64,000 nt of DNA from Pseudolabrys sp. (GTDB taxonomy: Bacteria > Pseudomonadota > Alphaproteobacteria > Rhizobiales > Xanthobacteraceae), in assembly GCA_035718275.1 (NCBI GenBank), contig DASTHI010000046.1:54348-118347 (forward strand), in the 5' to 3' direction. The notes below the pieces were generated by a model. It had not been told where the DNA came from. It saw nothing but the letters and a program-made list of their open reading frames with translations, and did no database searches. How positions within the stretch are numbered: the stretch's first letter is position 1; the number at the start of each line of letters is the position of its first letter. A program made the position numbers and the translations under genes. Positions 7,021-26,790 of this stretch are shown here, piece after piece.

Positions 7021-7066
7021 CAACTAGACGTTGACTAGCGGAAGCCGCCTCGCACTAAATGTAGAT
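7021..7066 (+). promoter_or_regulatory. Tandem NrdR boxes overlapping a sigma70 promoter (TTGACT-N17-ACTAAA)
   Basis: Cores CTAGACGTTG (7024-7033) and CTAAATGTAG (7055-7064) are 31 bp apart, the typical NrdR tandem spacing, and cover the -35 and -10. Confidence 0.7.
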
Positions 7067-7067
7067 G

Positions 7068-7245
7068 TCACGGTCTCTCGATTCTGGTCGAGAGCTAAGA
7101 GGGAAACCGGTGAGCTGACGGCAAAGCCGGTGCTGCCCCCGCAACTGTAAGCGGCGAGTGTCTGCCATCATTGTCACTGGTGCGCGAATGCACCGGGAAG
7201 GCCCGGCAGACGCAGCGACCCGCGAGCCAGGAGACCTGCCGTGAT
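7068..7245 (+). ncRNA. Cobalamin (AdoCbl) riboswitch
   Basis: Hallmark segments AAGAGGGAAACCGGTG, GCCGGTGCTGCCCCCGCAACTGTAAG, GTCACTG, CCGGGAAGG, GAGCCAGGAGACCTGCC, located upstream of a B12-independent RNR. Confidence 0.95.
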
Positions 7246-7355
7246 CGAACGAACGTCCTCGGGCGGGGTGCCTGGTGGGTCGCTTGCCGCCGAGGTGCGC
7301 TCGGTTTCCTGCAAGTCATCCACTAGGCCCGTGCCCCAACATCGCGGGGTTGCCG

Positions 7356-18740: not shown

Positions 18741-19808
<1,068 letters not shown>

Positions 19809-19811
19809 TAC

Positions 19812-20726
19812 ATGGGCGCTCCCAGCACCTCTATGGATTGGGACAAGTTGAAGGTGTTTCACGCGGCCGCAGAGGCCGGCTCCTTCACCCATGCCGGCGA
19901 AAGGCTCGGACTGTCACAATCCGCTGTGTCGCGGCAGGTATCCGCGCTCGAGGCAGAATTGGCGGTCTCGCTCTTTCACCGTCATGCGCGCGGATTGATC
20001 CTCACCGAACAGGGTGAACTGCTTTATCGCACTGCGCATGAAGTCTTCATGAAGCTGGAAGCGGCTCGCACTAAACTGACCGACAGCCGTGAACGGCCCA
20101 ATGGCGAACTGAAGGTCTCCACCACGCCGGGAATAGGCGTGCATTGGCTGACACCGCGACTCGGCGAGTTCCTCGATCTTTATCCTGATATCCACATCAC
20201 GCTGATTACGACGGATGAGGAGCTGGACCTTGCGATGCGGGAAGCCGATGTGGCAATCCGTTTGCGTCAGCCGACTCAGCCCGATTTGATACAGCGGAAG
20301 CTGTTTTCCGTGCATTCGCATGCTTATGCGTCACCGGATTATTTGAAGCGATTCGGCACTCCCCGGACGCATGAGGATCTCGACAATCACCGCATCATTC
20401 TGCTCGGGGGCGGTGTGGTTCCGGCACATCTGCAGAATCGGCGCTGGCTGCTCGAAATCAGCCGCGATGGGAAAGGACCGCGCACGCCCGATTTGACCGT
20501 GAACAACGTACTCGGCGTATTGCGGGCGTGCCAGCGCGGGCTGGGCATTGCAATGCTGCCCGACTACTTGGTCGAGGAAAACGGCGGACTGGTTCAACTC
20601 TTCGGCGAAGCCGACACCCTCGCCATGGACGCGTATTTTGTCTATCCGGAAGAACTAAAGTCGGTTGCGCGCATTCAGGTGTTTCGCGATTTTCTCGTTG
20701 CGAACGCGCAGCGCTGGCATTTTTAG
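19812..20726 (+). CDS. vtlR: LysR-type regulator, LsrB/VtlR ortholog by synteny
   Basis: MDWDKLKVF HTH. The lrp <- trxB-lysR -> AbcR-like arrangement matches my recollection of the lsrB/vtlR locus in rhizobia and Brucella. Confidence 0.75.
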   Translation: MGAPSTSMDWDKLKVFHAAAEAGSFTHAGERLGLSQSAVSRQVSALEAELAVSLFHRHARGLILTEQGELLYRTAHEVFMKLEAARTKLTDSRERPNGELKVSTTPGIGVHWLTPRLGEFLDLYPDIHITLITTDEELDLAMREADVAIRLRQPTQPDLIQRKLFSVHSHAYASPDYLKRFGTPRTHEDLDNHRIILLGGGVVPAHLQNRRWLLEISRDGKGPRTPDLTVNNVLGVLRACQRGLGIAMLPDYLVEENGGLVQLFGEADTLAMDAYFVYPEELKSVARIQVFRDFLVANAQRWHF

Positions 20727-20842
20727 TCGGTTTCACAGCGGTAAAATGTAGCAGCGAGGCGAGGCGCGGAACGCGGTGACCGCATTTGGTCGGCTTCCCA
20801 ACGATTTGCTGTTGCGGCATGGCTGGCATGCGAGTGTCGGCG

Positions 20843-20871
20843 TTGCCCGAACGGAGTTCGTTTCGCATAGT
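20843..20871 (+). promoter_or_regulatory. Sigma70-type promoter TTGCCC-N17-CATAGT for the sRNA, with upstream palindrome GCATG-N5-CATGC (20817-20831)
   Basis: 17-bp spacing. Predicted +1 near 20878, at the foot of the first sRNA hairpin. Confidence 0.6.
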
Positions 20872-20877
20872 GTTGTC

Positions 20878-21002
20878 TCGCTGTTGCGCCGGATGCGTAT
20901 CCTCCCAGAATCACCGGTGAACAGCATGTTCCCCTCTGGAAGTTGTTGTCGGCCCCCACGCCGACAATCCTGAACCGGGCCCTACAGGGGCCCGGTTTTT
21001 TT
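20878..21002 (+). ncRNA. abcR: AbcR/alpha-r15-like small RNA
   Basis: Three hairpins. Loop motif TCCTCCCAG (20900-20908) and GTTCCCCTCTGG (20928-20939) match the two anti-SD motifs I recall for AbcR1/2. Lies immediately downstream of the lsrB/vtlR-like gene and ends in a terminator. Confidence 0.75.
20973..21002 (+). terminator. Rho-independent terminator
   Basis: AACCGGGCCC/GGGCCCGGTT stem followed by a T run. Confidence 0.85.
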
Positions 21003-21091
21003 CGGACAATCAGAAAACGGGCTGGCCGGCAGACGCGGGCGCGTTGGTCGCAGCCGCTCATTGCGCGAAGGTCAACGTCAGGTCTGGCTGA

Positions 21092-22177
21092 TTAGCAGCG
21101 CCGATAGTGATAGGCCGTATCAACGACTTCAGATGCCAGTGCAACGATTCGCTCGTGTTCTGGCGACAACTGACAAACCGGATCTGCGGCTCGCGCATTA
21201 CCGGTAATCACGAATGCTTGACAGCGACAGCCACCGAAATCCTGATCGCGGCGCGAGCATGTTCGACACGGCTCTTCCATCCATTGATGGCCGCGGAAGG
21301 CGCAAAAAGCGGGTGAGTTGATCCAGATCTCGGCAAGCGGATGTTGGCGGACATTCCAGAACTCGAGCCCTGGTATGACTTCAGCAGCGTGACAGGGCAG
21401 CACCTTTCCAGAGGGCGTCACATTGAGCGATCGTCGGCCCCAACCGCCGACGCAAGCTTTCGGGAAGCGCGCGTGATAATCGGGCAGCACTGAGTCGATC
21501 ACGATTCGTCCGTAATGTGCTGCACGGAGGCGATCGACCAAAGCGACGGCTTCTTCGACCTGTTCACGCCTGGGCATGAGTGCGGCGCGATTCCGCAGCG
21601 CCCAGCCGTAATACTGCGCATGGGCGATCTCGATTCGGTTTGCGCCAAGGGAAATCGCGAACTCGATCATCTGCTCGATGCGACTGATGTTTGCGCGGTG
21701 CACCACCATATTGATGGTCAAGGGCAGGCCAAGGCGGACGACCTCCCCCGCAATGGCGCGCTTGCGCTGGAAAGCGCCTTTGTATCCGGAGATATGATCT
21801 GCTGCTGACTCGCTGCTGTCCTGAATCGAAATCTGCACGTGGTCGAGCCCAGCAACGGCCAGCGCTGCCAAGACATCCGAGGTCAGCCCCACCGCCGATG
21901 TGATCAGATTGCTGTAGAGGCCGGCCTGGCGTGAGGCATCGACGATTTCAGGCAAATCGCGGCGCGCCGCCGGCTCGCCACCCGAGAGATGGACCTGTAG
22001 TATGCCCATCGCGGCAGCTTCCTGGAACACGCGCGCCCAGGTCGCGACATCGAGCTCGTCGTCTCGATTGTCCAACTCGAGCGGATTGGAACAATATGGA
22101 CAGCCGAGTGGGCACCTGTGCGTGAGTTCGGCAAGCAGGCCGAGTGGCGCCGGCGGATCTGTCATCGTCTCAGGCAT
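21092..22177 (-). CDS. pqqE: PQQ biosynthesis radical SAM peptide cyclase
   Basis: [34 protein letters not shown]...PCH, CRCQA. Confidence 0.96.
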
Positions 22178-23289: not shown

Positions 23290-24185
23290 AGCACGATCTC
23301 CATGCCGTCCTCGGCAACTTGCCAGCCGGCAGCCTCGACCATGCGCCGCTGCGGAGAATCTTCGATCAGGATCGGATTAGTATTGTTGATATGAATGAGA
23401 ATGCGACGGCCCGACAGGTCGGCAAGTGCCCGCAATGAGCCCTCGTCACCGTCGAGCGGCATGTGTCCCATGCGTCGAGCGGTCTTGTGACCCGTGCCGG
23501 CGTGAATCATTTCGTCGTCACGGAACAGCGTTCCGTCGTAGAGAACTGCATCGGCCGCACGCAAGCGTGCCCACATTGCTTCAGTAATCGCAGCTGCAGC
23601 GGGAACGATAACGAGACGGGCATCCCGATATCGCATTTCGATCCCGACGTTCGCAGGAGTGTCGGCGCTCGTCTCGGGATCATCCCCTTCGAGATACAGC
23701 GGTGGCTTGCCCGGGACGGTGAAAAGTATTGCATCGATTCCTCCTGCAAGCCGGAACACCCGCCCTGGATCGATCGTGCGACGCACCATCGCGGTCATGG
23801 CGCCAAACACGGCGTTCGCCGAAACAGCGGCGTGAGTGGCCCGTGTCGCGTAGAGGGTAAAGGGCGTGCTCTCACGCAGGCACAGCAATCCTGCAATCTG
23901 GTCGATTTCGCCTCCCGTAAGGACGACCGCCTTGATCGGACTGCTCCGTAACCCTTGCTGCGGCTGCAGTGACGGAATCGCGCGAATTTGGGTCCCCAGA
24001 TCGGGCGAGGCGTTGATCAAGGTCCACTGACTGCCGTTCGCGGACACTGCGATTCCTGTCTGCGTCCGTGTTCGGACCCGCCGGTCACCGGCCCATGCCA
24101 GGGCACATGCCCGGCAGCGGCAATTCCACTGAGGAAATCCGCCCCCCGCCGCCGAGCCAAGGATAATGGCAGTCAGGCGCCTCAT
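23286..24185 (-). CDS. pqqB: PQQ biosynthesis protein B
   Basis: GSAAGGGFPQWNCRCRAC, RTQT, NASPD, GHMP, HINNTNP. Confidence 0.96.
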   Translation of the reverse strand: MRRLTAIILGSAAGGGFPQWNCRCRACALAWAGDRRVRTRTQTGIAVSANGSQWTLINASPDLGTQIRAIPSLQPQQGLRSSPIKAVVLTGGEIDQIAGLLCLRESTPFTLYATRATHAAVSANAVFGAMTAMVRRTIDPGRVFRLAGGIDAILFTVPGKPPLYLEGDDPETSADTPANVGIEMRYRDARLVIVPAAAAITEAMWARLRAADAVLYDGTLFRDDEMIHAGTGHKTARRMGHMPLDGDEGSLRALADLSGRRILIHINNTNPILIEDSPQRRMVEAAGWQVAEDGMEIVL

Positions 24186-26713: not shown

Positions 26714-26790
26714 TGGTACAGGCGGGTGGACTCGAACCACCGACCTCTGGTTCCACAGACCAGCGCTCTAACCAACTGAGCTACGCCTGC
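26714..26790 (-). tRNA. tRNA-His(GUG)
   Basis: Reverse complement GCAGGCGTAGCTCAGTTGGTTAGAGCGCTGGTCTGTGGAACCAGAGGTCGGTGGTTCGAGTCCACCCGCCTGTACCA. Anticodon GTG, encoded CCA. Confidence 0.97.

Follow-up and report, generated by a model that had tools for sequence, protein, structure and literature searches.

The plus-strand segment 20878-21002 of the window (the whole 64,000-nucleotide stretch of Pseudolabrys DNA analysed here) very probably encodes a trans-acting small RNA (sRNA) of ~125 nt, the AbcR1 (alpha-r15 family) ortholog of Pseudolabrys. Judged from its sequence, this is a conserved stand-alone gene with its own promoter and terminator, located directly 3' of lsrB, and its two seed motifs, M1 and M2, are identical to functional AbcR motifs. 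Transcript, RNA ends and LsrB dependence are predictions throughout. AbcR1 RNAs silence nutrient-uptake genes in rhizobia, Agrobacterium and Brucella, and published accounts (PMC3346310, PMC3712013) treat alpha-r15/AbcR as a multi-copy group of genes found in Rhizobiaceae and Brucellaceae. Pseudolabrys is placed in the Xanthobacteraceae (Hyphomicrobiales) by NCBI, in agreement with the first-pass annotation, which had proposed an AbcR-like locus in a genome that did not look like one of the Rhizobiaceae; its AbcR1-type reading of the locus is supported by the analysis reported below. Our literature search found no paper joining AbcR1 with Xanthobacteraceae.

The locus behind trxB-lsrB and its promoter

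The sRNA unit follows a pair of plus-strand genes. The first, trxB (18843-19808), encodes a thioredoxin-disulfide reductase (TIGR01292, 420.9 bits, cut-off 343); the second (19812-20726) encodes a LysR-type protein, the presumed activator of the sRNA. Over its full length this protein is 55-62% identical to the LysR proteins that precede AbcR in Rhizobiaceae and Stappiaceae loci, and it is the best match in the genome to the Agrobacterium and Sinorhizobium LsrB queries, at 359-366 bits against 87-93 bits for the runner-up. By these sequence matches, it is a clear LsrB/VtlR ortholog. The sRNA occupies the spacer between the lsrB stop at 20726 and the end of pqqE at 21092 (21092-22177, minus strand; TIGR02109, 534 bits). 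Because pqqE is convergent on the sRNA terminator, the unit is not the leader of a downstream gene.

The position of the unit, in the intergenic region directly 3' of lsrB/vtlR with trxB upstream, is the one that marks AbcR1 orthologs. A search for exact matches to the two seeds, with one genome per species, retrieved loci from Rhizobium, Sinorhizobium, Agrobacterium, Neorhizobium, Shinella and Hoeflea, and also from Roseibium, Stappia, Pseudovibrio, Cohaesibacter, Pseudolabrys and Xanthobacteraceae MAGs. Most of these loci have the same-strand order trxB-LysR-sRNA, which was seen in Rhizobium, Sinorhizobium, Agrobacterium, Hoeflea, Roseibium, Stappia, Pseudovibrio and Cohaesibacter. The position behind trxB-lsrB, pointed out in the first-pass annotation, is shared with the Rhizobium, Sinorhizobium, Agrobacterium and Hoeflea loci.

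Within the genus, a DNA search found the sRNA unit in 22 of 24 Pseudolabrys genomes. An lsrB gene (90-96% identical) lies upstream of it in all 19 relatives compared, two of these loci giving a partial match only, and a downstream pqqE is shared by a single one of the 19. The unit thus travels with its regulator gene, and the region 3' of the sRNA is a recombination-prone boundary.

Upstream of the sRNA, alignments and the published consensus both point to an LsrB/VtlR box in the palindrome GCATGGCTGGCATGC (GCATG-N5-CATGC; 20817-20831, plus strand). In the S. meliloti abcR1 promoter the LsrB/VtlR consensus, GCAT-N3-TG-N3-T, occupies -61 to -49, and promoter activity is abolished by deleting either the box or lsrB (PMC8844928, PMC7486931). 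The window box GCATGGCTGGCAT (20817-20829) reads GCAT-GGC-TG-GCA-T and fits this consensus. It is followed by a sigma-70-type promoter (20843-20871, plus strand) recognised by its conservation, with TTGCCC as the -35 hexamer (20843-20848), a 17-nt spacer and CATAGT as the -10 hexamer (20866-20871). We placed the start of the sRNA at 20878, 7 nt past the -10 hexamer, guided also by alignment with S. meliloti AbcR1, whose mapped 5' end we worked out from probe coordinates given in PMC3346310. Relative to this putative start the box lies at exactly -61 to -49, as in S. meliloti abcR1, so that the predicted arrangement is that of an AbcR1 ortholog: a box ~50-60 bp upstream of the start and a promoter of sigma-70 rather than RpoH type. 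GCATG-N5-CATGC palindromes number two in the 64-kb window, where 0.23 would be expected. The other one, GCATGTGTCCCATGC at 23459-23473, falls within a 299-aa minus-strand ORF, part of a run of such ORFs upstream of pqqE; it does not fit GCAT-N3-TG-N3-T and is probably due to chance.

A different origin of the RNA has to be weighed here. The sRNA could lack a promoter of its own and be the processed 3' end of a trxB-lsrB operon transcript, its terminator serving as the operon terminator. No convincing terminator separates the lsrB stop at 20726 from the sRNA unit, which makes read-through from lsrB likely, and the sRNA promoter is a weak consensus match, fitting 8 of 12 positions of a consensus that is itself of E. 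coli type. A consensus scan of 20600-21200 for promoters and terminators flagged neither; its criteria are stricter than the elements conserved in the alignments, and we do not read this result as absence. Against an origin by processing, the elements of the promoter are held under constraint: among 20 aligned genus sequences the box core CATGGCnGnCATGCG is nearly invariant, as are the -35 TTG and the -10 CATA, at fixed spacing, while the sequence between box, -35 and -10 varies. The -35 TTG and -10 CATA/T positions are conserved across families as well. The promoter region, box included, also aligns, column for column, with that of AbcR1, the copy next to lsrB, in the Sinorhizobium terangae locus, and promoter and box align further with the Hoeflea, Agrobacterium and Stappiaceae loci, which relates them to the abcR1 promoter whose LsrB dependence was established by experiment; AbcR2, the other Sinorhizobium copy, has no box, and the window promoter is unlike that of AbcR2. 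Finally, the unit can stand apart from lsrB. In one genus relative the sRNA, complete with box and promoter, lies ~1.2 kb away from lsrB, and another genus of the family has an inserted gene that separates lsrB from its box-carrying sRNA. We therefore consider a processed operon end very improbable, and the preferred reading remains that of an sRNA gene with its own, predicted LsrB-dependent promoter.

RNA fold and relationship to AbcR1

The 133-nt stretch that holds the unit folds at -57.1 kcal/mol (z = -4.93), and none of 200 shuffles folds as well. RNAalifold, run on 28 distinct transcript sequences of the Pseudolabrys type, returned three hairpins, in which 95.9% of cells are paired, against 30-49% after sliding the partners, and compensatory double changes occur at 13 of 33 pairs, against 4.4 +/- 1.4 in shuffles (0/500 reach this count). 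Hairpin 1 (20880-20925, plus strand) has 14 pairs, 6 of them with compensatory changes, and 93.8% of its cells are paired; its loop TCCTCCCAGA is invariant in the 28 sequences and holds seed M1, UCCUCCCAG / TCCTCCCAG, at 20900-20908. Seed M2, GUUCCCCUCUGG / GTTCCCCTCTGG (20928-20939, plus strand), lies in a stretch, GTTCCCCTCTG, that is invariant in the 28 genus sequences and unpaired in the consensus structure. Hairpin 2 (20945-20968, plus strand) is G+C-rich and shows compensatory changes at 5 of its 7 stem pairs. Its loop CCCCAC (20954-20959) is invariant across the genus, one CUCCAC excepted, while the stem covaries. The intrinsic terminator (20975-21002, plus strand) consists of CCGGGCCC-TACAG-GGGCCCGG (20975-20995) followed by T7 (20996-21002); it has 12 pairs, 2 with compensatory changes, and 97.6% of its cells are paired. 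AbcR RNAs have this architecture of three stem-loops that ends in a U-tailed Rho-independent terminator. A similar C-rich loop, CCUCAC, is seen in the Bradyrhizobium homolog described below.

Across the 20 aligned genus sequences, little or no variation is seen in the box, the -35/-10 core positions, the two seeds and the CCCCAC loop, while the spacers and stems are variable. Covarying stems combined with fixed single-stranded motifs indicate that selection acts on RNA structure and goes beyond the DNA sites. We do not regard the 15-codon ORF lying within the RNA (ATG at 20926) as coding: its ATG is unconserved (CTTG or CAAG in relatives) and indels shift its frame. Each part of the unit that had been listed in the first-pass annotation (palindrome, promoter, hairpin 1, single-stranded stretch, hairpin 2 and terminator) was thus recovered at the expected place.

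The seeds were defined in Brucella and Agrobacterium, and mutagenesis in Brucella showed that AbcR regulation runs through CUCCCA (M1) in the hairpin-1 loop and GUUCCC (M2) in the stretch linking the first two hairpins (PMC5461406). In the window sRNA, CUCCCA is exposed in the loop of the 5' hairpin and invariant in 28 sequences, and GUUCCC is single-stranded between hairpins 1 and 2 and likewise invariant; the seeds claimed for this locus are therefore arranged as published. The M2 seed occurs once in the window against 0.15 occurrences expected with one mismatch allowed. The only other exact GCATGGCnGnCATGC in the genome falls within a 667-aa ORF and was set aside as a coding-sequence coincidence.

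The match to the existing family model is weak and complete at the same time. The Rfam ar15 model (RF02345) aligns full-length, over positions 1-112 of 112, to 20879-21000, with 18.1 bits against a gathering score of 40, which is an operational and not a biological criterion. In this alignment the hairpin-2 region takes up 26 nt against 15 in the model. Infernal with the ar15 model had been proposed as a check of the locus, and its outcome is divided: the structural alignment was obtained, and the score stayed below the cut-off. The sRNA locus is nevertheless the top ar15 match in the 4.14-Mb genome (E = 0.53), and we estimate the chance that the top match would land in this 365-bp spacer at ~1e-4. 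The second ar15 match (C31:102215-102338, 13.1 bits) was discarded as due to chance, as it lies within an apparent ABC ATPase coding region on the opposite strand, where our own model R1 (below) is silent. With its score below the cut-off, the sRNA is missed by standard Rfam annotation, as had been anticipated from its divergent scaffold; a scan of the window at the gathering threshold did not report it, its sole matches being a cobalamin riboswitch (7054-7257, 134.5 bits) and a tRNA gene (26717-26790), both of which reach the Rfam thresholds.

To place these scores, the AbcR1 copies of Rhizobiaceae and Aminobacter reach 96-112 bits with ar15, one second copy reaching 65, and among the loci tested only those of Rhizobiaceae and Aminobacter pass the threshold. 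Roseibium, Stappia, Pseudovibrio and Cohaesibacter (L041, L070, L061 and L064) and all Xanthobacteraceae loci tested fall below it. The annotation gap is thus wider than Pseudolabrys, given that the syntenic copies of these four genera are sub-threshold too.

Model R1, built from Pseudolabrys sequences, matches the window at 20876-21002 with 130.9 bits. It also aligns full-length to canonical AbcR copies with 22-32 bits, a score that is partly built in because the comparison loci were chosen by exact seed matches; chance co-occurrences of the seed pair in unrelated phyla give at most 17.5 bits, or nothing. An order-wide alignment of 30 sequences, canonical AbcR1 included, has 87% of cells paired, a figure to be read with the caveat that the alignment was fitted to the model, and compensatory changes at 33 of 33 pairs. 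By ar15, R1 and the seed pattern, the sRNA unit is single-copy in the 4.14-Mb genome, which bears out the earlier claim of a single copy.

Compared with AbcR1 as known from S. meliloti (SmrC16/SmelC412) and A. tumefaciens, the window sRNA shares the same-strand site behind trxB-lsrB, the box at ~-61 to -49, the sigma-70 promoter, the U-tailed terminator and the three hairpins with M1 in loop 1 and M2 between hairpins 1 and 2, and its predicted preference matches the AbcR1 target class (mRNAs of ABC-transporter binding proteins). It differs from AbcR1 in being single-copy, with neither a tandem AbcR2 nor extra copies on other replicons, in the stem sequence of hairpin 1, in a hairpin 2 that is a separate, larger G+C-rich stem with the invariant CCCCAC loop, and in its setting, in which LsrB lacks the Cys144/Cys273 pair. 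Multiple AbcR copies per genome are the rule in Rhizobiaceae and Brucellaceae (PMC3712013), and the single copy found here departs from that rule, which describes the known members and is no functional requirement. The AbcR1 and AbcR2 RNAs of Brucella abortus have the same six-nucleotide M1 and M2, and likewise a VtlR-type regulator and a box; in Brucella, however, the two genes are far apart and abcR2 is activated by VtlR (PMC5461406), whereas the one copy of the window adjoins its regulator gene. GcvB of enterobacteria is a functional analogue, Hfq-dependent and repressing many mRNAs of amino-acid and peptide ABC transporters (PMC3712013), but its sequence is unrelated, its seeds are G/U-rich, it has other regulators and its phylum-level distribution is different.

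The low ar15 score raises the question of whether a real sRNA has been assigned to the wrong family. An unrelated anti-Shine-Dalgarno RNA beside lsrB could have acquired C/U-rich seeds by convergence: such seeds recur in many sRNA families (PMC3927594), and the stems of hairpins 1 and 2 have little sequence in common with those of canonical AbcR1. Convergence would nonetheless have to account for a 9-nt UCCUCCCAG and a 12-nt GUUCCCCUCUGG that are both identical to AbcR, in the same order and the same structural context, for a promoter box, spacing and flanking genes equal to those of AbcR1 loci, and for intermediate forms in Stappiaceae, Cohaesibacter and other families of the order. We find this slightly less plausible still than a processed operon end, and very improbable. 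That the segment contains no functional RNA gene at all, and is a conserved LsrB operator plus terminator serving, for instance, lsrB autoregulation or insulation from the convergent pqq genes, is the least credible possibility: the terminator does sit between convergent genes, but covarying stems next to unchanging seeds and an unchanging hairpin-2 loop show selection on an RNA, and the unit stays beside lsrB when the downstream gene changes.

Predicted targets and mode of action

As an AbcR1 ortholog, the sRNA would be expected to act on uptake systems, and its seeds were scored against each gene's translation-initiation region (TIR), taken as -40 to +20 relative to the start codon. Genes were called crudely, as ORFs of at least 100 aa with GC3 bias (3,975 kept), and the scores are simple duplex energies with neither accessibility nor conservation terms. 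Of the 33 genes for LivK-type binding proteins located via PF13458, 31 are in this gene set. Against the 3,944 other TIRs, the 31 LivK-type TIRs pair more strongly with M1 (-12.7 vs -7.8 kcal/mol, p = 7e-14) and with M2 (-16.2 vs -12.2 kcal/mol, p = 6e-9). When the genes were matched on pairing with the 16S anti-Shine-Dalgarno sequence, a difference of -3.3 kcal/mol persisted for M1 (p = 1.4e-7) and of -2.4 kcal/mol for M2 (p = 6e-4). The CCCCAC loop, treated as a third seed, gave no LivK-type TIR enrichment after Shine-Dalgarno correction (p = 0.57), and no discrimination was obtained when the seed segments were long and the gene filter was strict.

The 20 best-ranked predictions among the 3,975 genes comprise four LivK-type binding proteins (hypergeometric p = 1.3e-5) and two more binding proteins, of the NMT1-type ABC class, one of which (C14:52734-53735) matches loop 1 perfectly over 12 nt; a permease for branched-chain amino acids and a TctB protein are also among these 20. 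One LivK-type gene lies in the window itself (PF13458; 54304-55536), shows TGGGAGGA, which matches loop 1 over 8 nt, at the ribosome-binding site, and ranks 9th of 3,975. These target predictions, taken as predictions only, fit an AbcR-type repression of uptake systems.

Put together, the elements would compose the following circuit. LsrB/VtlR, encoded next door, would bind GCATGGCTGGCAT at ~-61 to -49 and activate the sigma-70 promoter of the sRNA. Hfq, whose gene is present in the genome, would stabilise the RNA; AbcR RNAs are Hfq-bound and ~110-125 nt long. The exposed anti-Shine-Dalgarno seeds may then anneal to the ribosome-binding regions of transcripts encoding periplasmic ABC-transporter substrate-binding proteins, LivK-type proteins foremost, and this pairing would block translation and promote mRNA decay, so that nutrient uptake is tuned.

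The signal that enters this putative circuit may differ from that in Rhizobiaceae. In A. tumefaciens LsrB, Cys144 and Cys273 form a conserved, functionally important redox pair (PMC11975290). The local LsrB has Val at both positions and keeps a single Cys, at position 240, and with this redox pair absent its input signal may differ. The pair is also absent from the Roseibium, Stappia, Pseudovibrio, Bradyrhizobium and Xanthobacteraceae MAG orthologs examined, and so may be specific to Rhizobiaceae.

Relatives across the order and what they imply

In a set of 401 genomes from 149 genera of the order, R1 has matches (E <= 0.001) in 64 genomes and 34 genera, and 17 of 30 loci examined (the window's own included) have an lsrB ortholog within 1.5 kb. 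Two Bradyrhizobium matches (L173:2512-2642 and L175:1866-2002; R1 31-35 bits) lie behind trxB-lsrB. This Bradyrhizobium sRNA shares with the window sRNA the family (Xanthobacteraceae), the site, the box (CGCATGACTGACATGCGG) and the three-hairpin layout, but its seeds have diverged, with CCCCCUCCUCCAG in loop 1 and AAUCCCUCUUGGAAGG replacing GUUCCCCUCUGGAAG. Its 21-nt loop sequence occurs exactly in at least 120 loci, and most of the matches listed are Bradyrhizobium. No description of an lsrB-linked sRNA of Bradyrhizobium was found in those parts of the literature that were available to the search, and the papers treating AbcR1 and Bradyrhizobium together, as far as their text was accessible, describe no homolog. 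A further variant is found in another genus of the family (L174, G150:C4:303500-308000), where the sRNA keeps the box and M2 but not M1, its loop having no CCUCCC motif; here lsrB and the sRNA are ~750 bp apart, with an opposite-strand ORF between them.

One extension of the AbcR1 reading can be offered as a tentative idea, which we regard as possible and rather unlikely: lsrB-abcR1 would be an old regulator-sRNA module, order-wide or wider, whose inputs and outputs have been rewired in Xanthobacteraceae. On the input side, an LsrB devoid of its presumed redox-sensing thiol pair may answer a different signal. On the output side, the invariant CCCCAC loop would be a gained third constrained element, which may address other targets, or another protein partner, than canonical AbcR1 does.

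Altogether, the analysis extends the known range of the lsrB-abcR1 circuit with a single-copy, box-bearing AbcR1 ortholog in Pseudolabrys, very probably correctly assigned, which has syntenic relatives in Bradyrhizobium, Stappiaceae, Cohaesibacter and many further genera of the order and which shows lineage-specific features: the single copy, the hairpin-2 loop and an LsrB that lacks the cysteine pair. It enlarges a known family, and introduces neither a new principle nor a new kind of element. Because ar15 recognised none of the syntenic copies tested outside Rhizobiaceae and Aminobacter, Rfam-based annotation will leave this regulator unreported in common soil bacteria. What is gained in practice is an improved family model, together with a testable circuit, in which LsrB would activate the sRNA and the sRNA would in turn adjust amino-acid uptake, in a little-studied lineage that has cultured members.
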